Below are positions 607 through 63,757 of a DNA stretch of 64,000 nt, one piece after another. A program made the position numbers and the translations under genes. The notes below the pieces were generated by a model. The model saw nothing but the letters and a program-made list of their open reading frames with translations. It did not search any database and was not told the DNA's origin. The stretch comes from Bacteriovoracaceae bacterium (GTDB lineage: Bacteria > Bdellovibrionota > Bacteriovoracia > Bacteriovoracales > Bacteriovoracaceae), in contig JBLWTJ010000001.1 of assembly GCA_048270185.1 (NCBI GenBank), positions 928,001 through 992,000 of the forward strand, written 5' to 3'. Numbering within the stretch: position 1 is the stretch's first letter; each line of letters begins with the position of its first letter.

Positions 607-2979
607 ATGATGAGAGTAACTTTCTATTTAATTTTGCTATTATTACTTTTAGGAAGTTGCTCAGGGCCAGAAGAATCGATTTATCTTACACCTGAAGTTA
701 GAAAAGAACATGAGTCACTTTATCAGAATGCTCAAGAGAACTTAGAGCAATCACCTCTCGAATTTAAGAAAAAAAACTTAGAAGAAATTCATCAAGTAGT
801 TCGAACAAAGCACATTGATTTTAACAAGCAAGTAAAGCCAATTATCGACAATCGTTGCGTCGTTTGTCACAGTTGTTACGATTCTCCTTGCCAGCTAAAA
901 CTTACAGCAAAAGAAGCCATCACTCGTGGAGCTTCAAAGGAGAAGGTCTATGAGGGCGATCGACTTCTCGCAATCCCCCCAAGTCGACTCTATGTCGATG
1001 CGAAAAATACAAAGCAGTGGCGTTCGAAAGACTTTTATCCCGTTATATCTGATGAGGGCCATGAAGGTCTCAAAGGACTTAATAGCAGTAGTCTTGCTAA
1101 GATGTTACTTCTTAAAAGTCGGATCCCATTACCGCAAACTCCAGTACTTCCTAGCAGCCTAGATTTTAGTTTAGAAAATGATCGTTTTTGTCCTAAGCCT
1201 GAAGAGATGCAAGATTATGCAGAATCATCTCCATTTGGTGGTATGCCTTACGCGCTCCCGGCCCTGACAAAAGCTGAAAATTACACAATTCTAAAATGGG
1301 TTGCCCAAGGTTCGAAGATTGAAGATGAAAATAAGATATCTAAGAGTGATCAAATCTATATTGAGAAGTGGGAAGATTTTCTCAATCAAAAGAGCAATAA
1401 AGCAAAGCTAATGAGCCGCTACCTTTATGAGCACCTCTACTTGGCCTCTTTATATTTTAAGAAAAGTGACACGCCAGTTTTCTATCAATTAGTTCGATCG
1501 AAAACACCGATAGGAAAGCCAGTTGATATTATTGCAACAAGAAGGCCCTTTGATGATCCAAAAATTGAAAAATTCTACTACCGTCTAATTAAAAGAAAAG
1601 AGACGGTCGTTGCCAAGAATCATATGCCATATCTCTTTGATCAAAAGCGTATGAATTGGTATCAAAATTTATTTTTAAAACCAAAGTATATAGTTAAAAA
1701 GCTTCCATCATATAGACCTGATATCGCATCAAATCCATTTGAATCATTTAGAGACATCCCAACGAAGTCAAAGTATGAATTTCTTTTAAAGGAGTCAATG
1801 TATACTATTTCAGGTTTTATAAAAGGCCCTGTTTGCCGCGGACAAATCGCCTTAAATGTTATTCAAGATCATTTTTGGGTCTACTTTCTTGATCCTAAAA
1901 TTTATGACAACAACGATAACACGCTAATACAAGAGCTTGCTCATATGAGTCTTCCCGCAGAGTATTCAAACCGCAAGGGCGGTATTCAGTGGTTCAAATA
2001 CGAAATTGAAGAAAAAAAATATTTAAAGAAGAAATTTGAAGTTATTAATAAGACAAAAGATCTACTATCTATTGATTCTATATGGAATGGAAATAGAAAG
2101 AATCAAAATGCGGCCTTAACAATTTTTCGCCACTTTGACAGTGCCAGTGTCGTCAAAGGTCTAGTCGGACAAGTCCCTAAAACAGCTTGGGTCTTTGACT
2201 ATCCTCTACTTGAAAGAGTTCACTACTTATTAGTTGCAGGCTTTGATGTCTATGCCGATGTCTCTCACCAATTAAACACTAGACTTTATATGGACTTTCT
2301 TCGTATGGAAGGAGAATCTAATTTTCTGGCCTTTTTGCCATCTCAGTCGCGAATTAAAGAAAGAGATCTTTGGTATAAGAATGCATCTGAGAGTGTGAAA
2401 GACCATATCGTTGGCCGTTACGCATGGATAAAGAAAGAGCCAAAGATAAAGTATCAAACAAAGAATCATAAGTATGAGTTACACGAGAAACTTAAGAATC
2501 ATCTTGGAACGGCCCTCAATCACCAGTATGACGTCAGCAATAAGATACTCAGTGCACTCATGACCGAAGTTGATCCTAAGATAGTTGATATGGAGCTCTT
2601 TTCTCAAGTTTCATATTTACTCATTGATAACGAAGTCTATAGTTTGATTCATAATAATGCTCACGAAAATATCACTCACCTTTTAACAGAAGGTAGTAAT
2701 AGGGCCAAGAATGAAGATAGCTTCACTATTGTTAAAGGAGCAGTAGGAACGTATCCAAATACTATTTTTAAAATGAATATAACAGAAGTTCCTGAGTTCG
2801 TAGGCTTGATAGAGAAAGTTACATCACCAAGAGAGTATGCACGATTACTTGATCGTTTTGGCGTACGTCGCAGTAACCAAGACTTCTGGAAAATCCTCGA
2901 TCGTATTCATAAAATCAATAAAGCAGCTGATCCAATTGAATTTGGTCTTCTCGATTTAAATCGTTTAGAAAATCGATAG
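607..2979 (+). CDS. cti: Fatty acid cis/trans isomerase (c-type heme, lipoprotein signal)
   Basis: RCVVCHSCYDSPCQLKL heme motif, FIKGPVCRGQIALNVI, FRHFDSASV, C-terminal GLLDLNRLENR; lipobox LLGSC. Confidence 0.92.
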   Translation: MMRVTFYLILLLLLLGSCSGPEESIYLTPEVRKEHESLYQNAQENLEQSPLEFKKKNLEEIHQVVRTKHIDFNKQVKPIIDNRCVVCHSCYDSPCQLKLTAKEAITRGASKEKVYEGDRLLAIPPSRLYVDAKNTKQWRSKDFYPVISDEGHEGLKGLNSSSLAKMLLLKSRIPLPQTPVLPSSLDFSLENDRFCPKPEEMQDYAESSPFGGMPYALPALTKAENYTILKWVAQGSKIEDENKISKSDQIYIEKWEDFLNQKSNKAKLMSRYLYEHLYLASLYFKKSDTPVFYQLVRSKTPIGKPVDIIATRRPFDDPKIEKFYYRLIKRKETVVAKNHMPYLFDQKRMNWYQNLFLKPKYIVKKLPSYRPDIASNPFESFRDIPTKSKYEFLLKESMYTISGFIKGPVCRGQIALNVIQDHFWVYFLDPKIYDNNDNTLIQELAHMSLPAEYSNRKGGIQWFKYEIEEKKYLKKKFEVINKTKDLLSIDSIWNGNRKNQNAALTIFRHFDSASVVKGLVGQVPKTAWVFDYPLLERVHYLLVAGFDVYADVSHQLNTRLYMDFLRMEGESNFLAFLPSQSRIKERDLWYKNASESVKDHIVGRYAWIKKEPKIKYQTKNHKYELHEKLKNHLGTALNHQYDVSNKILSALMTEVDPKIVDMELFSQVSYLLIDNEVYSLIHNNAHENITHLLTEGSNRAKNEDSFTIVKGAVGTYPNTIFKMNITEVPEFVGLIEKVTSPREYARLLDRFGVRRSNQDFWKILDRIHKINKAADPIEFGLLDLNRLENR

Positions 2980-3038
2980 AAGTTATTGTAGTTAATTTTT
3001 TTGTTAATTAATTAAATAAAATTGCCGAGTAATTGCCC

Positions 3039-3800
3039 ATGGATAAAGTACTACTTTCGTGGGTTGGTAACGAAGAAATTGAATCATATTCACCGAGATG
3101 CTCGACGATTAATCGCCTCTTCTCTGCTCTTAGTATAGATTTTAAAACTAAAATTATTGGTATAGACTCTGAACTAAAAGGTGCTAGTGAAAAGCTACGA
3201 GGACTACCTATTATCATCGATGGTAATAAGAAAATCATGGGACAGCGAAATTGTATTAATTATCTTCGCGAACTCAGAGGTGAATCTGAAATTTTTCAAC
3301 TAACTGATGAGCAGAGAATTCAAGAACAAATTCTCTTTGATTGGTGCCTCTCCTCTCTACATGCAACCACAGTATATTTTCAATTTAAAGATATTTCTGG
3401 ATTAAATGGTATGCGAAAAAGAATTTTAAAAAGTGCAAAATTAAATGGTGACACCGAAGATACAATTGAAGATGTGGCCAATCCGATTAAGGAGGCCCTA
3501 TTAAATTATGTCTCAGGCTTTGAAATTATGGATATGGATAAAGATGAGGCCATTGCCTACTTCGACGCACAAGTTTCGTATATCAATGAAATGCTTGGTA
3601 ATAAGCAATTTCTCTTTGGTCATTCATTAAAGGTGATTGATATTGCCATCTACACTCACTTTTCTCGTGCACTACTTCCAGGACTGGCCGCAACTGAGCA
3701 TATAAAGAGAAAGTATAACCGAGTTATTCGCTGGCTTTTGAAAGTAGCCGCTCAAACGAGATCATCAAATAATATTTATCCTTCTCACCTTGAATCATAA
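3039..3800 (+). CDS. Glutathione S-transferase-like protein (metaxin/FAX-like)
   Basis: N-terminal SYSPRC, LPII.DG motif, C-terminal LGNKQFLFG....IDIAIY; ATG at 3039 preferred over TTG 3033. Confidence 0.65.
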   Translation: MDKVLLSWVGNEEIESYSPRCSTINRLFSALSIDFKTKIIGIDSELKGASEKLRGLPIIIDGNKKIMGQRNCINYLRELRGESEIFQLTDEQRIQEQILFDWCLSSLHATTVYFQFKDISGLNGMRKRILKSAKLNGDTEDTIEDVANPIKEALLNYVSGFEIMDMDKDEAIAYFDAQVSYINEMLGNKQFLFGHSLKVIDIAIYTHFSRALLPGLAATEHIKRKYNRVIRWLLKVAAQTRSSNNIYPSHLES

Positions 3801-52134: not shown

Positions 52135-55100
52135 TTAATTTGCAATTAATCCTTTGATCGCTTCAGCACAACTACTTGTTCTCTTTAAACGTGGAAGTCC
52201 AGAGTAATTAGGGTTAACTGTCGCACGATTAATCTCACCTTGCTTTGCCGACTCTATTCTTAGCTCTTGAAATTCTAATGCTTCATCATAGATTGGTCCA
52301 GTATAAGCACGACCTTCTGAAGTAATAGCAGAGTTCTTTCCACGAGGAGAGACAGCACTTCCCCAGTTATGAAAGATTGGATTAATTTTTAATTGATCCT
52401 TTAGAGGTCGATAGAATCTCGTTTGTGTGTAATTTTGTACATTTGAAATTGCTTCACCTGCCATTGGACGATATTCACGCATCTCAAGTCCTAGGTCACT
52501 TGTCATCTTTTCAAGATCTTCAAATAACTTCTTTGGATTTCTCATATACTCTTCATGGGTTACACTTTGTAGCTCACCTGAGATTTCATCGGTACGATTT
52601 AATGCCTTATCTAGAATTGCACGGAATAACTTCATTTGAAGAGCACTCTCATAAGCATCACGAGGAGCATTCATGAGCCTTACTTCACCCTTTCTAATTT
52701 TTGGATTCACTCTAAATGCTGGTCTCCATTCTACCTTTGGATTTGAGATATCAAAGTCATCACTAATGAATTGTTCTGGAATAACATCTTGGAAGTAAGC
52801 CGAGACATCAAGGTGTGTATAACGGGCCTTACGTCCTACTCGCTTATTAAAATAGCCTTCATTATAAAGTGCCTTCTTAAGCTCAGTTTCAGTTCCCGTC
52901 CAATTAGCAAGTTGTCTTGCAAAGTCTTCGCTAATATTGACCGCTTCAGCACTTTTGACACGATTTAGGTCTTGAAACATAAAGGCAATCACTGAACGAT
53001 ACTCGTGAAAAGTTGCCAGAAAGCGTGCAAACTCTGTTGGCTTACCTTCAAATATTGAAAGATCGATATTTAAGTGACCACCACCGGCCTTAATATAAGG
53101 TAGGGCATTATTCTTTTGAAATGTATCAAAGACGGCCTGCATCTCACTCATATTTGGTTCAAACTTAGGTGTGACAACTTCGATTGAACCAGCACGAACT
53201 GACTCAACAATAACATCACCACTTGGTGTATAGTTACGTCCGATACCATCCCATTCAACTCGCCATGAGCGATTCTTTGAATCTTTAATCTTATAGGCAA
53301 TATCAAGGCCGTGACCATGGCCATCTTCCATTAGGCGTTCTGGCTCACCTTCACCACCAAGCTTATCTCTTAAGTCTGCGGCAAGCTTTTTAATATAGGC
53401 TTCCTTTTCATCAACTGGCATATCAACTCGTGACTGAAGCCATGACATTTTTCCATCTATTAGCCTTTCTGTTGTATAAGTTCCATCTGCTTCTTGGGCC
53501 ATTGTGTAATCCCCTTGAAACTTTAATGGAAATTTTGCTGAGTACTCGATCCCAAGGTCAATCTTATTAACATCGTGGAGCATATTTGTCCCAGGCTTAA
53601 ATTTGTGAAAGTTTTCAGTGTCTGCAAATTTTCTAACAGGCATCATATACTTCTTCACATCTTCGGCGATATGAGAGCTGGCAACCCAATCTCTTTGTAG
53701 AGCGATGACAGCTCGTTGAAGTGACTTCGGATTTGTCTGTCTAAGACTTGCAACATCTTCAAGGTAATTCTTTGTTAAATCTTTTAAAAGCAGACTCTTT
53801 GTCTTTCCAATCATCGGATTAGCATCATACCAATTCCAAAGAGGAACATGGTAGCCATCGATTCCGGCCTTATTAAGTTTTTCAGCGGCCTTCTTAGCTT
53901 TTGCTTTGGTTAGGCCAAATCTCTCCTGCAAACCTTCTGGAGTAATATATCTTGTGATATCATCATCAATAAGTGACCAATCATTTACTTTAGCAAGTCC
54001 TTCAAAATCACCACGAGAAAAACGTGAGGCCATTGAAGTTTGAATAAAACGCGCAACACGAGAGTTCTTTGTCCCTGAGCGAAACTCAATGGAAATGGAG
54101 TCATTCATAAATCGTCCTTCGTAGTCAATTCTTAAAGGACCACGATCACTCTCTTCGCCATTTACAATCCCTTCAAAGATCTGCCAATCATCAAGGACCC
54201 ACTTATAGTCGGCCGTCTCAATACCTGATCGACCTGCAATCCCCTCAAGAACAATTAACGCTTGGGCGGCTTTTGTCATCTCAGCAGCTTTAGGTAGGTT
54301 GAATTTTTCACCAACAGGAACAACCATACGCTGGTGACCTGGTGCTTGGAATAACTCACCTCCACGGCCCATCGTCTTTTTAAACCATGCAATCATCTCT
54401 TGAAATTCACCGTAAGTTTTTTGAGGAGCAAACTTAACTTCCCATCCAACTGATGTGCTTTCAATTTCTTCCATATACTTTTCAGGGGCACCAATATTTG
54501 GAACCATTCGGTAAAAGTCTGTCGACTCTTCTGTCAGAGTTGAGAACTCTCCTTTATAGAATTTTCTTCTTGTATTTGGAGTTAGGTAACTAAAAGGACT
54601 ATTATTTGTTTTTGAACACCACTCACTCCATTTTGTTTCAAGTTCTTCAAGTGTTGCACTAGCTGGATCAAAACCTTCAAGGAAGCTAATATCCATGGCC
54701 TTATTCTTACCCTGCCAATCAAATAATTCGTGGGCAGGATCAAAGCGATTTCCCTCACTATCAATCCATACTCGAAGAGATGAGCCACCTTTTGAATTTG
54801 TCCATCCTTCAAAGAAATCTTTTAAGAAAACTTTCTTCTCGTCTTCATCAAGATACTCAATGGCATCTTCAAAAGTTGAAGCATCAGGTCCAAAGATTCG
54901 TGTGACATAAGAAGATGAACCTTCTTTCTCACCACCCCAAGTAATGGAGCGTCTTCCTGAGCCTAAGACTTGGGTGGCCTTGGCATTAAAGCCAACGGAA
55001 GCTTCCATCATTTCGCCCCAAACTTCATAAGCTGTCTTTGGAGGTGTCGAAGCAGGAAGCCTAAAATCAATATTGAGATCAGGAAAGTCATGATTTACAA

Positions 55101-55173
55101 AGTAGACCTGCGGAAAGACCCCAAGAAGAAGTGAAAGGATGAGAATTAAAGATGGCCGCTTAAAAAAATTCAT
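52135..55173 (-). CDS. Large exported protein with putative amidoligase (COOH-NH2 ligase) domain(s)
   Basis: N-terminal signal/anchor; C-half LGIEY, WRVEWDG, IEVVTP, GGHLNI, RY..LD, GEVRL; N-half GWEV..P, GH, SIEFR. Confidence 0.55.
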   Translation of the reverse strand: MNFFKRPSLILILSLLLGVFPQVYFVNHDFPDLNIDFRLPASTPPKTAYEVWGEMMEASVGFNAKATQVLGSGRRSITWGGEKEGSSSYVTRIFGPDASTFEDAIEYLDEDEKKVFLKDFFEGWTNSKGGSSLRVWIDSEGNRFDPAHELFDWQGKNKAMDISFLEGFDPASATLEELETKWSEWCSKTNNSPFSYLTPNTRRKFYKGEFSTLTEESTDFYRMVPNIGAPEKYMEEIESTSVGWEVKFAPQKTYGEFQEMIAWFKKTMGRGGELFQAPGHQRMVVPVGEKFNLPKAAEMTKAAQALIVLEGIAGRSGIETADYKWVLDDWQIFEGIVNGEESDRGPLRIDYEGRFMNDSISIEFRSGTKNSRVARFIQTSMASRFSRGDFEGLAKVNDWSLIDDDITRYITPEGLQERFGLTKAKAKKAAEKLNKAGIDGYHVPLWNWYDANPMIGKTKSLLLKDLTKNYLEDVASLRQTNPKSLQRAVIALQRDWVASSHIAEDVKKYMMPVRKFADTENFHKFKPGTNMLHDVNKIDLGIEYSAKFPLKFQGDYTMAQEADGTYTTERLIDGKMSWLQSRVDMPVDEKEAYIKKLAADLRDKLGGEGEPERLMEDGHGHGLDIAYKIKDSKNRSWRVEWDGIGRNYTPSGDVIVESVRAGSIEVVTPKFEPNMSEMQAVFDTFQKNNALPYIKAGGGHLNIDLSIFEGKPTEFARFLATFHEYRSVIAFMFQDLNRVKSAEAVNISEDFARQLANWTGTETELKKALYNEGYFNKRVGRKARYTHLDVSAYFQDVIPEQFISDDFDISNPKVEWRPAFRVNPKIRKGEVRLMNAPRDAYESALQMKLFRAILDKALNRTDEISGELQSVTHEEYMRNPKKLFEDLEKMTSDLGLEMREYRPMAGEAISNVQNYTQTRFYRPLKDQLKINPIFHNWGSAVSPRGKNSAITSEGRAYTGPIYDEALEFQELRIESAKQGEINRATVNPNYSGLPRLKRTSSCAEAIKGLIAN

Positions 55174-56877: not shown

Positions 56878-58209
56878 CTAAGAAAGTAGTGATTTTTTAA
56901 AATTTAACGTGAATTGTGTACCATGATTATCAGGATTATCTTCTTTTGTTCGAGAAGTAACGGCTATCGTTCCATGACATAGTTCCACAAAGCTTTTGAC
57001 GATGGCCATTCCAAATCCAGTCCCTTTCTCACCTTCAGTTCCGGTACGAGATGAATAGTAATTACTATCGAAAAGTAAATTGGCAAGTTTCTCATCCATC
57101 CCAATTCCTTCATCAACGAGATGGATTTGAACACCTTCTTTAGTTTCTCTAGCCTCAATTTTTATCGTTCGTCCATGGTCAGAGAATTTAATGGCATTTG
57201 ACAGTAAATTCCCAAAGATTTGATACTGGAGGGCCGTGAGATTCCCCATAAAATAGATATCTTTATTTAATTCAAAATCGTACTCGAGACTTATTTCTTT
57301 AATAGTAAGGTTTGGTTCAAAGAAACGTGATAGATGTTCAACTACTTCATTTAAATAAATTTTTTCAAAACTTAGTTCAACTTTTCCTTGCTTGATGGCC
57401 TGGATCTCACGAATTTGCTTTAGGATATTACTCATCCCCTCAGTATTAACCTCAAGACGTTTTAAAGCTTTACTAACTCTCTCATCTTCGTGATCTTTTA
57501 ATATCTTTTTAAGTTTGTGAGTTGATAGATTAACAATAGTTAATGGGTTACTAATATCGTGACCTACGAGAGTTAAAAGTGCATCGATTTGCTCTCTTTT
57601 TTGAACAATAGTTTTATAGAAATTTTCACGATCAATAATATAGGCCAGCATGAAGACTGAGTTTAATATAATCAATCCAACCATAATAAAGATCTTACCT
57701 AAAGCGTAGCCATCACTCGAGATCTCTACAGGAAATCTAATCCCCATTTGATACGTGATATAGAAGAAAGCGGCACCGATAATTGATGTCGAGAACCAAA
57801 TTAATAATTCTTTCTTTCCCCCAACAACCCCAGCAATAAGAGGTAGAACTGCAAACCAAAGAGCGATATATCCTTCAAAGCCACCAGTATAAACTCCCCA
57901 AGTAAATTGGTGAATAAAGCCTGCCGCGAGAAAAACATTTAAACTTAAAGAAATTGATCCAAAGAAGTAATAAAGGAGCAAGCTTGACAGATGAATGATC
58001 GACATAGAAAAGGCAATCGTATGCCAAAGAGTATTAGTACTATAAAGATATGGAGTAATTGCATAACACCACATCAGAATACCAGTTAAGAAAACGACAA
58101 AGACAAGTAAGGCCAATTGTGATCTTTCATGTTCATCTCTACACTCATGTCGCTTAGAGAGAAAATTCAGAATGTCATTGTAGAATTTCATATTTATTGT
58201 TTTTATCAT
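56878..58209 (-). CDS. Orphan multi-TM sensor histidine kinase
   Basis: About 6 TM helices; GHDISNPL H-box, NLLSNAIKFS, DEGIGM, GEKGTGFGM. Confidence 0.9.
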   Translation of the reverse strand: MIKTINMKFYNDILNFLSKRHECRDEHERSQLALLVFVVFLTGILMWCYAITPYLYSTNTLWHTIAFSMSIIHLSSLLLYYFFGSISLSLNVFLAAGFIHQFTWGVYTGGFEGYIALWFAVLPLIAGVVGGKKELLIWFSTSIIGAAFFYITYQMGIRFPVEISSDGYALGKIFIMVGLIILNSVFMLAYIIDRENFYKTIVQKREQIDALLTLVGHDISNPLTIVNLSTHKLKKILKDHEDERVSKALKRLEVNTEGMSNILKQIREIQAIKQGKVELSFEKIYLNEVVEHLSRFFEPNLTIKEISLEYDFELNKDIYFMGNLTALQYQIFGNLLSNAIKFSDHGRTIKIEARETKEGVQIHLVDEGIGMDEKLANLLFDSNYYSSRTGTEGEKGTGFGMAIVKSFVELCHGTIAVTSRTKEDNPDNHGTQFTLNFKKSLLS

Positions 58210-58349: not shown

Positions 58350-59816
58350 TTAGAATTGTATACTTGCCGAAATTTCATAAAGTGGCATATATTCGACACC
58401 TTGCCTTCTTAGCTCTCGATCAACTTTAATTAGTTCATTTTTAAACTTAACGGCGGCTTCGAGATGCGATTTCTTCGTAAACTTATAATCAGCATCAATT
58501 AGTCTAGTCACTGTTGTTGGAGAAAAAAATAGATTATCGGCCATCGAATACTTCATTTGATCAACGGCATTGACCAACTTCTTACGACTTATCATCTTAT
58601 CACCTTTAGTAGGTGGAGCTTGTCTTAACCTAAGGGGAACTTGCCTCTTATCTAGAATTCCATAATTATAATGATCAGTTGCATGAGCTACTGTTACAGT
58701 AAATAGATAAGTCGTTACAGCACGAAAGAGATTATCTCCTTCAAAAATTGTTTCACTTGAAGGAAAATTATTAACGTGTTGATGACAGTAATCTGCCCAC
58801 TTACTAATCCAGAAATCACCTTTCTTTATATCGCTAAGGACATGTGAGACAAATCCATATACAACACTATAATAACTCTGTAGATAGACTCCGTATGGTC
58901 CTTCACATGATGGAGCGGTCATTGAATATGAGAATGGTGGATAAGAATAATTTCCTTTAATACCTTTATAGCCTTCAACCAAGAGATCACGTAACCCCTC
59001 AGGTCCACCGGGATACGGAGCATATGTCATCCACCACTTTTCCTGCAAGAGTGATGACTTATAATTTAAAACAGCATTTTCCAAGGGAAGAGTAAATCTT
59101 AAATGTGGCGAAAGTAATTTAAATAGAATGTGTTCTCGCGGTAGAGAGGTTTTTGTAATTGCGTTTATTGAATCAAATGGAAAGTGTAATAAAGGATGAA
59201 TTACGAGAGTTGCACATAGGGCACCACCTTGTAAGACAAAGTACTTTGCAAGCTCCCATGCTGATGTTTCTTCTGAAATATCAAATACAGTCTGTGTTTT
59301 CTTTATATAGATTGCTTGAACTTTAAAACGCTCACCTTCTTTGTATAACAGTGTCTTTGTAGCGCTAACATAGATTCCTTTCAGGGGTTCGACAACATCC
59401 ACTGCAGAAAGATCCACAATGAACCATTCTTTTTCTAGTTCTTTGTAATCCACGAAATTTTGCCAATCTTCATCATCGAGCTTATTAGTTAAGAACTTAC
59501 TCATCATCGAAGTATTGAGTAACTCCTCAAACTCAGTATTAGTTACTTCTTTTAATCCGGGATAGATCAAAGCTTTGAGAAAATATGGCAGAGATAGTAA
59601 TAATGTTACTAAGTAACGAGACCCAATCCAAATCCACCAATCAATTGTTTCCCTTAGTGGAATATGAATGACAGCAGGAGACTCTCCCCAGGGGTGAATT
59701 GGAGAAGGTTGAGGCCATGGCCCTTTCCTCGAATACATAAAGTCTTTGGGAGAATAAAGATGCTGAGCTGAAGTTGCACTATTTTCTTTTTCTCTAATCT
59801 CTTCTTTAACTTTCAT
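58350..59816 (-). CDS. Lipoxygenase-like protein (compact, divergent metal-ligand motifs)
   Basis: WELAKYFV, HPLLHF, LPREHILFKLLSPHLRFTL, AHATDH, C-terminal ASIQF align to LOX motifs W.LAK, H..(.)H, HP..KLL.PH, HA.(N/H), SI.I. Confidence 0.72.
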   Translation of the reverse strand: MKVKEEIREKENSATSAQHLYSPKDFMYSRKGPWPQPSPIHPWGESPAVIHIPLRETIDWWIWIGSRYLVTLLLSLPYFLKALIYPGLKEVTNTEFEELLNTSMMSKFLTNKLDDEDWQNFVDYKELEKEWFIVDLSAVDVVEPLKGIYVSATKTLLYKEGERFKVQAIYIKKTQTVFDISEETSAWELAKYFVLQGGALCATLVIHPLLHFPFDSINAITKTSLPREHILFKLLSPHLRFTLPLENAVLNYKSSLLQEKWWMTYAPYPGGPEGLRDLLVEGYKGIKGNYSYPPFSYSMTAPSCEGPYGVYLQSYYSVVYGFVSHVLSDIKKGDFWISKWADYCHQHVNNFPSSETIFEGDNLFRAVTTYLFTVTVAHATDHYNYGILDKRQVPLRLRQAPPTKGDKMISRKKLVNAVDQMKYSMADNLFFSPTTVTRLIDADYKFTKKSHLEAAVKFKNELIKVDRELRRQGVEYMPLYEISASIQF

Positions 59817-59843: not shown

Positions 59844-60410
59844 TTAATCTATGATAACGCCAAAGGGTGTTAGTAATTCTAGAACTTCAGGAATACTAAA
59901 GCGACAACCATTAACATTAGTACTTGTAACATCAATTTGATAATTGATGGCACCTTTAAAATTTGATGACTTAAAATTTGCTCTATTTAGGATGGCATTT
60001 AGAAAATTAGAATGAGAGAAGTCACATTCGATAAAGCTACCTTCTGTAAGCACACTACTTCTAAAGCTAGAATTTATAAAGTTTGATTTATTAAGTTTCA
60101 CATTTTCGAATGAAGAGTAATCAAGAATACATTCGTCAAAGTTCAGATCAAAGAGTGTGTTGCACTCAGAAAAATTTACTCCAATACATTTAGAGTTCTT
60201 AAATTTCACATCGCGAAAAGATGCGCTCAATATATTGGTATTACTTAAATTACAGTTTACAAATTCACATTCAATAAATTTAGCGTGACGAAGATCTTTC
60301 TCACTAATATCGATATTCTTAAATTCACAACTAATAAATTCACAACCAGAAAAGGAATCGATGTCTTTAAGATTCTCTATCGTAAAACATTCGTCTTCAA
60401 AATAATTCAT
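59844..60410 (-). CDS. Pentapeptide repeat protein
   Basis: Tandem [C/A/S]-x-F-x-x repeats (CEFIS CEFKN ... SNFIN SSFRS ... ANFKS SNFKG). Confidence 0.9.
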   Translation of the reverse strand: MNYFEDECFTIENLKDIDSFSGCEFISCEFKNIDISEKDLRHAKFIECEFVNCNLSNTNILSASFRDVKFKNSKCIGVNFSECNTLFDLNFDECILDYSSFENVKLNKSNFINSSFRSSVLTEGSFIECDFSHSNFLNAILNRANFKSSNFKGAINYQIDVTSTNVNGCRFSIPEVLELLTPFGVIID

Positions 60411-60449: not shown

Positions 60450-60866
60450 CTAAATCGAAATTTCTGGTACCTCTGACACAACAGAAATTGGCCTTCTTTC
60501 ATCATCAATTGCCACAAGTGTGAAATTTCCTTTAACAGCGAGAATCTTACCTTCTTCATACATGCCTTCGAGAAAGAGTGATACGTCAATTACTAAGCTG
60601 GTATTACCGACTTTCACGACCTCTCCAATCAGTTCCGCAAAGTGTCCTCCAGGTATTGGCATATTGAAGTCAACTCGATCACTAGAGACTGTTACGAATT
60701 TCTTTCGACCGAAGCGAGTGGCCGTAATAAAGGCTACTTCATCCATCCACTTCAAAGTGTTTCCACCAAATAATGTGTCATAGTGATTTGTGCTGTTAGG
60801 AAAGACGGCCCTAACTACCGTAGTTTTTGCGCTGGCAATAGCAGCACTGTGTACATCAGTACTCAT
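60450..60866 (-). CDS. Acyl-CoA thioesterase (hotdog fold, YciA-like)
   Basis: VFPNSTNHYDTLFGG..LKWMDEVAFITATRF, VTVSSD, VGNTS. Confidence 0.9.
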   Translation of the reverse strand: MSTDVHSAAIASAKTTVVRAVFPNSTNHYDTLFGGNTLKWMDEVAFITATRFGRKKFVTVSSDRVDFNMPIPGGHFAELIGEVVKVGNTSLVIDVSLFLEGMYEEGKILAVKGNFTLVAIDDERRPISVVSEVPEISI

Positions 60867-62272: not shown

Positions 62273-63757
62273 TTAATAATATAATGCACTTTCAAGCATT
62301 TCCATCCCACGAGCAAGTTTTCCCGCTTCAAATGAGTCCCTTTCATTACGGCCAGAAATATCGTAGAGATCTTCAGATGTTATTTTTCTCTTAAGAGCGA
62401 AGTATGCTTTAGTTTTATTCTTTTCAAAAAGCGCTGTCATAAGGGCCTTTACATATTCTTTATTAACTTCAGCTATGAAGTCATTTGTCGGTTGATAGCG
62501 CTTGATATCTTTTAAAAGCTCTTTTGTATCACTAGAGTTTGAAATTACATATCCTCGGTTTTTGAGTTGTCTTAGAAACTCTCCTTGTACTCCTTCTCCA
62601 CGAGGAGAAAGTCCGATGAAAATTGACTCTAAGTTTTCCTTGTCGATTTTTATTCGTTCTAAGTTTCCATAAATAAAAGACTCTGCAGCAATAAGATTTG
62701 AGTCGCGTGAAAGCCTTGCTAGATCCCTAATATACTTCGGATCCATATTATCTTCGTAATTACCACGACAGATATTACACGCACTCTGCTTACCTTTACT
62801 GTCATCCATAAAGCAGCAAGTTTCACAGGCATAGCTCATATCCAGTCCAGTCTGATGGGTGTAACCAAAATTATGGATCATTTCGTGAAAGATAATTCCT
62901 TCAAGCTCATCTTTGGGTGGCCCATCTTTTACAACACCAAAGAAATTAGTCTTCATTTTAGGATTTAGTGAAACAAATGGGTGTTCAACATTAAGCCCAC
63001 TCGCTTTTGTCTGAGCTATACTAGCATGGGCAATTTCACCACTGCCCCAATCGGCTTTCTTCTCATGACAAATAACTGAGATTGGTTTTACCTTGCCCGA
63101 AAGTTGAATATTAAATTGATTAATAAGATTTGATATCTCGCCCTTAATACTATCCTTAGGATTTTGGCGGGCCAGATCAGTTAAACAACTTAATCCCTTA
63201 TCCATTGCATTCTTAAACATCTTAACAAAAGTCTTTTCACCAAAATTTTTAAAGCATGATTTATGGACCTGTAGGCCCTGGGCCATTGGAGAAAAATCAT
63301 TATTGAACTTAGCAACAACAGGTCGCAGTTTTTCAACAAAATCATCGATATTATTTAAGTTATCGAGGTATTGGCCATAATTACAAGAGTTCTCAGGGCC
63401 AAGTCCGTATTGAATATTGCTATATCTTTGTTCAAAGGCCAATTTTCTTTTGCCGTTACTCAGACGAAAAATTCTTAGAGTTGAACTTCCCCCTTCATTT
63501 GAAATCTCTTCAAGTCGATCAAATTTATGGTCAAAATCTTCATCGACCTTGATTGTCGTAGCCTTTCCAATTACTTTTAAATGATAATCGAAGTGCCCAT
63601 CATAATTTCGGTCATTTCGGTGTTCAATTAGATGCCCATCTTGATAAGTGAATATATTATCAACTTTACCATCTTTGTTATCATCAAACTCAAAGACTTC
63701 ATTTGAGGCCAGGGCCATTGAACTAAGTAAATATAAAGATAACAGTATCTTAAGCAT
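62273..63757 (-). CDS. Secreted putative zinc metallopeptidase with N-terminal DxNxDG repeats
   Basis: Signal peptide; DDNKDGKVD, DRNYDGHFD, DEDFDHKFD; FHEMIHNFGYTH (HExxHxxGxxH). Confidence 0.65.
   Translation of the reverse strand: MLKILLSLYLLSSMALASNEVFEFDDNKDGKVDNIFTYQDGHLIEHRNDRNYDGHFDYHLKVIGKATTIKVDEDFDHKFDRLEEISNEGGSSTLRIFRLSNGKRKLAFEQRYSNIQYGLGPENSCNYGQYLDNLNNIDDFVEKLRPVVAKFNNDFSPMAQGLQVHKSCFKNFGEKTFVKMFKNAMDKGLSCLTDLARQNPKDSIKGEISNLINQFNIQLSGKVKPISVICHEKKADWGSGEIAHASIAQTKASGLNVEHPFVSLNPKMKTNFFGVVKDGPPKDELEGIIFHEMIHNFGYTHQTGLDMSYACETCCFMDDSKGKQSACNICRGNYEDNMDPKYIRDLARLSRDSNLIAAESFIYGNLERIKIDKENLESIFIGLSPRGEGVQGEFLRQLKNRGYVISNSSDTKELLKDIKRYQPTNDFIAEVNKEYVKALMTALFEKNKTKAYFALKRKITSEDLYDISGRNERDSFEAGKLARGMEMLESALYY

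Follow-up and report, generated by a model that had tools for sequence, protein, structure and literature searches.

According to the accessible part of PMC13059375, lipoxygenases (LOXs) hold their metal through three fixed His residues, a further position taken by His, Asn or Ser, and a C-terminal residue that is Ile or, very occasionally, Val. The same part of PMC13059375 states that iron and manganese LOXs have common ligands and take up each other's metal with loss of activity, metal competence being set by the second sphere. We analysed a 64,000-nucleotide stretch of DNA (hereafter the window) from a Bacteriovoracaceae bacterium (NCBI GenBank assembly GCA_048270185.1, contig JBLWTJ010000001.1, positions 928,001 to 992,000), in which one gene encodes a compact protein of 488 residues with a predicted LOX fold, next to the gene of a membrane histidine kinase (Table 1). 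The described LOXs against which this protein is best set are the mammalian 12/15-LOXs (1lox/2p0m, 3rde and 8ghb), the Cyanothece mini-LOX CspLOX2 (5med), a fungal manganese LOX (5fno) and the Pseudomonas aeruginosa LOX (4g32). We propose, with a probability of roughly 55%, that the compact protein is a LOX-fold metalloenzyme oxidising a lipid (or a lipid hydroperoxide), and that its product, or the state of the enzyme itself, is read by the adjacent sensor kinase.

Translation of the gene bears out the LOX landmarks listed for it in a preliminary description of this DNA, all present and in the expected order: WELAK (residues 187-191), HPLLHF (207-212), LPREHILFKLLSPHLRFTL (225-243), TVAHATDH (375-382) and the terminal SASIQF (483-488). 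From sequence alone the case for a LOX is marginal. A phmmer search of the PDB reached human ALOX12 at an E-value of 3.6e-04, and a family profile built from 35 relatives gave porcine 12-LOX 3rde as its best PDB match (E 4.9e-07), with LOX or AOS-LOX chains accounting for 27 of the 29 matches at E≤1 and for all 11 at E≤0.001. It is the predicted structure, an all-helical LOX catalytic domain, that is decisive. The AlphaFold2 model (mean predicted local distance difference test score (pLDDT) 86.2, pTM 0.87) retrieved human 12-LOX 8ghb in Foldseek at E 2.5e-14, with query-normalised TM-scores of 0.62-0.69 to LOX structures. VIA-align 2, which is independent of Foldseek, superposed it on 12 of 12 LOX cluster representatives with Z-scores of 22.4-28.8 and root mean square deviations of 3.1-3.8 Å over 369-454 residues, the next fold scoring Z 4.7. 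Model residues from about 12 to 488 cover residues 117-663 of rabbit 15-LOX and thereby its entire catalytic domain, from beyond the N-terminal beta-barrel to the C-terminal residue. In line with this, no PLAT domain was matched by Pfam in the 488-residue protein, which departs from the eukaryotic PLAT/C2-LOX architecture with its N-terminal barrel. Both the missing PLAT domain and the assignment to a divergent bacterial LOX clade, as put forward in the preliminary description, are upheld by these comparisons.

The four described systems differ in how closely they resemble the compact protein. The mammalian 12/15-LOXs supply the best matches (3rde by profile, 8ghb by Foldseek and 1lox, at Z 28.8, by VIA-align 2) and use four His side chains plus the C-terminal carboxylate, the same set as is predicted here. 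The compact protein, in contrast, is bacterial, has kinase gene neighbours, lacks PLAT, is about 170 residues shorter at 16-19% identity, and carries HxxxH and a Phe/Tyr end in place of HxxxxH and an Ile end. CspLOX2 (569 residues) shares the PLAT-less bacterial form and aligns at Z 27.5 over 453 residues (profile E about 6e-05), yet identity is 14-15% and the compact protein is another 80 residues shorter; to our knowledge, no kinase linkage has been described for CspLOX2. The Pseudomonas aeruginosa LOX belongs to the same superfamily (Z 27.7). Fungal manganese LOX 5fno, likewise PLAT-less, scores Z 26.1, within about 3 Z of the best, but is a secreted fungal enzyme with 12% identity and no sequence match at E≤1.

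The metal site would be mononuclear and complete: one helix would contribute His207 and His211, a second helix His378 and His382, and the final residue its carboxylate. We examined conservation in 119 divergent full-length sequences, namely the query, P0098 and every cluster representative of at least 430 residues. His207 is present in 119, His211 in 118, His378 in 116 and His382 in 115; residue 381 is Asp in 105 and Glu in 10; Ser485 is kept in 101 and Gln487 in 106; and the final residue is Tyr in 76, Phe in 33 and another residue or a gap in 10. In an alignment of 46 sequences with identities of 25-52%, variation is absent from only seven columns, four of which hold these same His residues, so that the motifs cannot be put down to chance. 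With hhalign, HP-LLH falls opposite HFTGTH of the canonical LOXs encoded next to some family members, with a one-residue gap (E 2.5e-05), and HMMER places His207 and His211 on the first two His ligands of ALOX12, again with a one-residue gap. A motif survey found the HxxxH-hydrophobic-Pro pentamer in most representatives long enough to reach the ligand helix. On the C-terminal side, the family profile aligns His378 and His382 to the H..H of 3rde, and model residue 488 aligns onto the C-terminal residue 663 of 1lox.

Judging by these alignments, HxxxH arose from HxxxxH through a one-residue deletion. The three ligand-sphere deviations singled out in the preliminary description (the HxxxH spacing, His at the fourth side-chain position and an aromatic last residue) are real and are conserved across the 119-sequence set, the 46-sequence set and the hhalign comparison; they are signatures of the clade rather than accidents of one gene. 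The predicted ligands agree with the definition of three fixed His plus a His/Asn/Ser position, and the four-His set lies within the known range, matching that of iron 12/15-LOX. The HPLLH spacing, set against the canonical iron-LOX HxxxxH, and Phe488, set against the canonical Ile (occasionally Val), by the same alignments fall outside the canonical pattern. An aromatic last side chain is no bar to ligation, because the ligating atom is a main-chain carboxylate. The metal would then probably be iron, the default for a four-His LOX site, with manganese less likely.

The preliminary description had favoured a manganese-dependent, membrane-anchored LOX that dioxygenates polyunsaturated lipids of prey, which we now regard as distinctly improbable. 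The HxxxH spacing on which the manganese proposal drew is real, and fungal manganese LOXs also space their first two His ligands as HxxxH, reportedly in an HVLFH pentamer; a literature text search returned no occurrence of HVLFH or His-Val-Leu-Phe-His among the papers listed, the listed matches to His274 belonging to unrelated proteins. Structurally, 5fno ranks only ninth of the 12 representatives and is missing from the 29 profile matches at E≤1. The conserved Asp381 beside a ligand could lower the reduction potential of the metal, a need of manganese LOX according to the accessible part of PMC13059375, but that part also describes manganese LOX as ending in Val and as having Asn for its fourth side-chain ligand; the compact protein has Phe488 and His382 instead. 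As for the membrane anchor, a hydrophobic segment near the N-terminus does exist, at residues ~60-88, and the model forms two helices there, at residues 54-73 and 75-84, both inside the stretch that aligns structurally with LOX catalytic domains. Averaged over 19 residues, however, the Kyte-Doolittle hydropathy of this segment peaks at 1.49, against the usual transmembrane (TM) helix mark of ~1.6, and no more than 4 of 35 relatives surpass 1.6 in the N-terminal region. These figures lend no support to a conserved TM anchor, though the protein may touch the membrane peripherally. The host comes from a predatory lineage, which would suit action on prey, yet family members also occur in non-predators (among them Algoriphagus and other Bacteroidota, cyanobacteria, and Proteobacteria such as Paracoccaceae), only 26 of 81 sampled genomes of the host's own order have a match, and no evidence for prey lipids as substrates was obtained.

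The neighbourhood of the gene hints at signalling. All ORFs (open reading frames) of 70 fetched loci and the window were clustered, the LOX-like ORF being called in 67 loci. A kinase cluster recurs in 41 loci, against 9 for the next commonest neighbour cluster, and 32 of the 67 loci have a kinase-type signalling gene directly beside the compact gene. An ORF of the kinase cluster occupies 32 of 124 flanking slots compared with 10 of the 281 remaining ORFs in those loci (odds ratio 9.4, Fisher p 1.4e-10, kinship ignored). Signalling kinases are thus enriched as immediate neighbours. The host genome (3.35 Mb) has only 24 HisKA matches.

The partners fall into two classes. The first is a membrane histidine kinase of ~440 residues, found in the window and in 13 fetched loci of Bacteriovoracia type, with a multi-TM block that is homologous between loci and with the phospho-acceptor His217, the N box and the G boxes invariant. 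The window kinase matches Pfam HATPase_c at 75.9 bits as well as HisKA, and has its hydrophobic segments between residues 28 and 194; this TM block, searched alone, gave no Pfam match at E≤10. The kinase gene stays next to the LOX-like gene through four different arrangements, being downstream on the same strand in 6 cases, upstream on the same strand in 5, divergent in 1 and convergent in 2. The second class is a giant STAND-type protein in 18 loci, and in 3 more at a distance of about 0.9 kb. It starts with Pkinase and AAA_16 domains, and lies mostly on the same strand, beginning 3-62 bp downstream. In Algoriphagus the full-length giant partner, of 1707 residues, runs Pkinase-AAA_16-GAF-adenylate/guanylate cyclase, another giant partner terminates in GAF-HisKA-HATPase, and in one Cytophagales locus a SpoIIE/PP2C phosphatase fills the partner slot. 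In a tree rooted on the neighbouring canonical LOXs, the compact family forms a very long separate branch. Since the STAND partner is that of its deep clades, and the membrane kinase turns up at scattered points among the Bacteriovoracia, the linkage to signalling proteins looks ancestral, with a swap of partner. A complex prediction for the LOX-like protein with the window kinase, run without controls, scored 0.00 against a mark of 0.32 and speaks neither for nor against binding.

Several observations weigh against a dedicated enzyme-kinase pair or against a LOX assignment. There is no signalling neighbour in 31 of the 67 loci, some of which are cut by contig ends; no fused extra domain is identifiable in 13 longer family members; and a promoter and terminator scan performed as chance (13 sites against 15.4 expected), giving co-transcription of the LOX-like and kinase genes no backing. 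The Pfam model PF00305, proposed in the preliminary description as a check, came out at 23.4 bits, 0.2 bits short of its cut-off of 23.6, and covered residues 175-245 only; it is passed by 2 of the 13 longer relatives, at 24.4 bits, and found no match in the Algoriphagus member. No NCBIfam model matches the compact protein. On the side of the substrate, the host genome has no PfaD-type polyunsaturated fatty acid synthase over cut-off, and its four FA_desaturase-family genes (PF00487, loci L005-L008), all over cut-off, are assigned no specificity by NCBIfam. The loci without a signalling neighbour would also fit a stand-alone oxygenase that detoxifies lipids or remodels membranes, the kinase adjacency being inherited synteny without function. 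Many of the loci are closely related, and the neighbours on the other side of the window gene, a thioesterase and a pentapeptide-repeat protein, recur in the two closest genomes only, as plain collinearity would have it. Such an account must nevertheless cope with an adjacency that spans at least five phyla, two unrelated kinase classes and four arrangements within Bacteriovoracia, and with an enrichment of about 9-fold over other ORFs of the same loci; we rate it as quite unlikely.

A different biochemical role would be that of a secondary oxylipin enzyme, that is, a LOX-fold hydroperoxide isomerase, epoxyalcohol synthase or lyase working on hydroperoxides from another LOX or from autoxidation. 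Epidermal LOX3, which acts after 12R-LOX, provides an analogy. In five loci (L053, L056, L057, L060 and L061) a canonical LOX of 721-761 residues (in L056 at 1514-3676 on the minus strand) lies upstream of, and divergent to, the compact gene with its STAND kinase/cyclase partner, which suggests a two-enzyme pathway. These neighbours are ordinary LOXs, with PF00305 at 44.9 bits, HFTGTH, HTWIN and a terminal Ile, and the compact family differs from them. Hydroperoxide isomerase activity is, moreover, treated as a regular side activity of LOXs in the accessible part of PMC13319228. Against this role, most loci have no adjoining canonical LOX, and in the host genome the compact gene is single-copy and no second Pfam-LOX match was found in its 3.35 Mb; nor did any residue-level marker tell isomerase from dioxygenase LOXs. 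We therefore see a secondary enzyme as an unlikely but credible alternative to a primary oxidase.

Under the reading that we prefer, in which the enzyme feeds the kinase, the compact protein would be a cytoplasmic, PLAT-less LOX-fold enzyme whose substrate is either an unsaturated lipid, which it oxidises, or a lipid hydroperoxide, which it converts, and the neighbouring kinase would sense its product or state, the pair forming an enzyme-plus-receptor signalling module. In Bacteriovoracia the sensor would be an intramembrane-sensing histidine kinase, whose membrane-embedded input, without a sizeable loop, would suit a hydrophobic signal. In other phyla the partner would combine Ser/Thr kinase, STAND ATPase and GAF parts with a cyclase or histidine-kinase output, the GAF domain being a candidate ligand pocket. 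Pairs of this kind are familiar: the haem oxygenase BphO makes the chromophore bound by the GAF domain of the neighbouring kinase BphP, the fatty-acid signal synthase RpfF is encoded beside the membrane sensor kinase RpfC, and H-NOX proteins accompany kinases. These systems share with the present one a gene logic in which a sensor kinase with GAF or intramembrane input has a small metalloenzyme or lipid enzyme encoded next to it; they differ in that their protein families are unrelated to those of the putative LOX-like pair. The suggestion in the preliminary description that the enzyme might make oxylipin signals gains circumstantial support from the kinase neighbours.

The LOX-fold protein might instead act chiefly as a lipid-, oxygen- or metal-binding sensor subunit, gating the kinase directly by docking on it, by analogy with H-NOX. 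Accessory sensors and their kinases are typically encoded as close together as the compact gene and the giant kinase, which are 3-62 bp apart on the same strand, and the N-terminus carries an element predicted to be disordered, as a docking peptide might be: Gly32, Pro33, Trp34, Pro35, Gln36, Pro37, Pro39, His41, Pro42 and Glu45 show no variation in 35 relatives, and the Pro-rich motif that they form is still discernible in the consensus of 46 distant relatives, yet pLDDT falls below 50 at residues 35-49. Residues 1-87 match no Pfam family at E≤10. The motif could serve for docking, or else take on order only in the presence of metal, lipid or a partner. A fully conserved redox-type metal site fits catalysis equally well, however, the partner classes do not share a sensor domain, the first having a multi-TM block and the second STAND-GAF, and the 13 longer members yielded no fusion proteins. 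A mainly sensory role seems to us, on this balance, quite improbable.

A broader form of the enzyme-kinase proposal concerns the family as a whole. It may be an ancient, phylum-spanning LOX-fold family dedicated to supplying input to bacterial signalling, either as an oxidised-lipid ligand or as a lipid- or redox-sensing subunit, with STAND Ser/Thr-kinase/GAF cyclases and kinases as receivers in most phyla and an intramembrane-sensing histidine kinase in the predatory Bacteriovoracia. We put this forward tentatively, as an idea with a fair amount to recommend it but with the odds somewhat against it.

The family is large and mostly unnamed. A homologue search returned 282 relatives, mostly without a name or called 'hypothetical'; three (P0042, P0050 and P0102) bear a lipoxygenase-type name from a source, and among the 120 of the 282 that were listed, 13 have a precomputed PF00305 match. 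An exhaustive search gave 334 clusters (50% identity) at E≤0.001 and 148 at E≤1e-30. The named genomes behind 71 loci include those of Halobacteriovorax, Bacteriovorax and Peredibacter, of Myxococcota (Minicystis rosea, Sandaracinus), cyanobacteria and Bacteroidota (Algoriphagus, Prolixibacteraceae, Cytophagales), and of Alpha-, Beta-, Gamma- and Zetaproteobacteria. Within the host's order the matches fall in 9 of 39 genera, and the host's genus has one in 8 of 8 other genomes. The compact clade is a large, deeply divergent and uncharacterised bacterial group, defined by HxxxH, HxxDH and a C-terminal S-I-Q-Tyr/Phe. The lipoxygenase assignment itself is not new, since a few databases already label members 'lipoxygenase family protein'. 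A literature search, with supplements and subscription journals outside its reach, found nothing on the compact clade, its ligand pattern or a LOX-kinase linkage; neither Bacteriovorax nor kinases come up in the accessible part of a preprint surveying bacterial LOXs, and Bdellovibrio and Bacteriovorax are absent from the accessible part of a 2026 bacterial LOX review (PMC13319228).

Copies in the host's genus are either ~76% identical to the window protein (G019, G048 and G073) or ~40% identical (G009, G036, G051, G060 and G074). The latter, to judge by sequence, may correspond to the clade of L045-L049, in which a STAND kinase lies about 0.9 kb off in three loci. Two genomes of the host's order (G023 and G053) have two divergent copies each. 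Copies 60-63% identical to the window protein and nested in the Halobacteriovorax clade occur in a Shewanella waksmanii assembly (L012) and in a metagenome-assembled genome of Flavobacteriaceae (L015), with G+C contents of 43.7% and 31%, respectively, the Halobacteriovorax loci having 34-38%; these could be horizontal transfers, or mis-assigned contigs from predator-prey mixtures. In freshwater Bacteriovoracaceae (L021, L022, L025, L026, L032, L041 and L042, also L038) an aldehyde dehydrogenase gene (PF00171) is convergently downstream in 7 loci and a flagellin gene upstream in 8. The association may be plain synteny of closely collinear loci; an aldehyde-handling step after lipid cleavage is conceivable.

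Table 1. Positions, within the window, of the compact LOX-fold gene, its predicted sites and the neighbouring genes
Feature	Position	Strand	Basis or setting
Gene of compact lipoxygenase-fold protein, 488 aa	58350..59816, stop codon included	(-)	Intact ORF, ATG start
Pro-rich N-terminal motif G32-PWPQPSPxHPxG-E45	59682..59723	(-)	Invariance among relatives
Two hydrophobic N-terminal helices, residues 54-84 (54-73, 75-84)	59565..59657	(-)	AlphaFold model
H207-P-L-L-H211, predicted first two metal ligands, HxxxH spacing	59184..59198	(-)	Conservation, hhalign, HMMER
H378-A-T-D-H382, predicted third ligand and His at the usual Asn position, conserved acidic residue before it	58671..58685	(-)	Conservation, profile alignment
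C-terminal S485-I-Q-F488, terminal carboxylate as predicted fifth ligand	58353..58364	(-)	Structural alignment, conservation
Membrane histidine kinase, 443 aa, about 5-6 TM segments, HisKA and HATPase; putative signalling partner	56878..58209	(-)	140 bp downstream of LOX-like gene, same strand
Pentapeptide-repeat protein	59844-60410	(-)	Directly upstream of LOX-like gene, 27-bp gap
4HBT acyl-CoA thioesterase	60450-60866	(-)	Upstream of pentapeptide-repeat gene, 39-bp gap
Protein of 1012 aa, hydrophobic N-terminus	52135-55173	(-)	One weak Amidoligase_2 domain (PF12224, 26.9 bits), no other Pfam match
Protein of 494 aa, signal-peptide-like start	62273-63757	(-)	HExxH-type stretch FHEMIH, no Pfam match at E≤0.001

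G+C content is 35-40% throughout the window. A functional operon of thioesterase, pentapeptide-repeat and LOX-like genes was considered and rejected: the first two recur beside the LOX-like gene only in the two closest genomes (L009 and L010), therefore representing ordinary collinearity, with no functional link implied. Farther off, the 494-residue protein with the FHEMIH stretch may, from its sequence, be an unclassified metalloprotease.

Bacterial LOXs are regarded as rare enzymes with largely unexplained native roles, yet the compact clade is large, with its 334 clusters, and standard annotation mostly misses it, flagging 13 of the 120 relatives listed and having no NCBIfam model for it. 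Three near-universal LOX features are changed in this clade, which makes it a natural test case for the tuning of a non-haem iron or manganese centre by the geometry of the ligand helix and by the C-terminal residue. If the broader proposal is true, prokaryotes would possess an oxylipin signalling system native to them, built on a modified metal centre of its own with HxxxH, HxxDH and the carboxylate of an aromatic last residue. The recurrence of sensor kinases and cyclases as partners offers a testable route to a signalling role of bacterial lipid oxidation, a route that extends to a predator that remodels the membranes of its prey.

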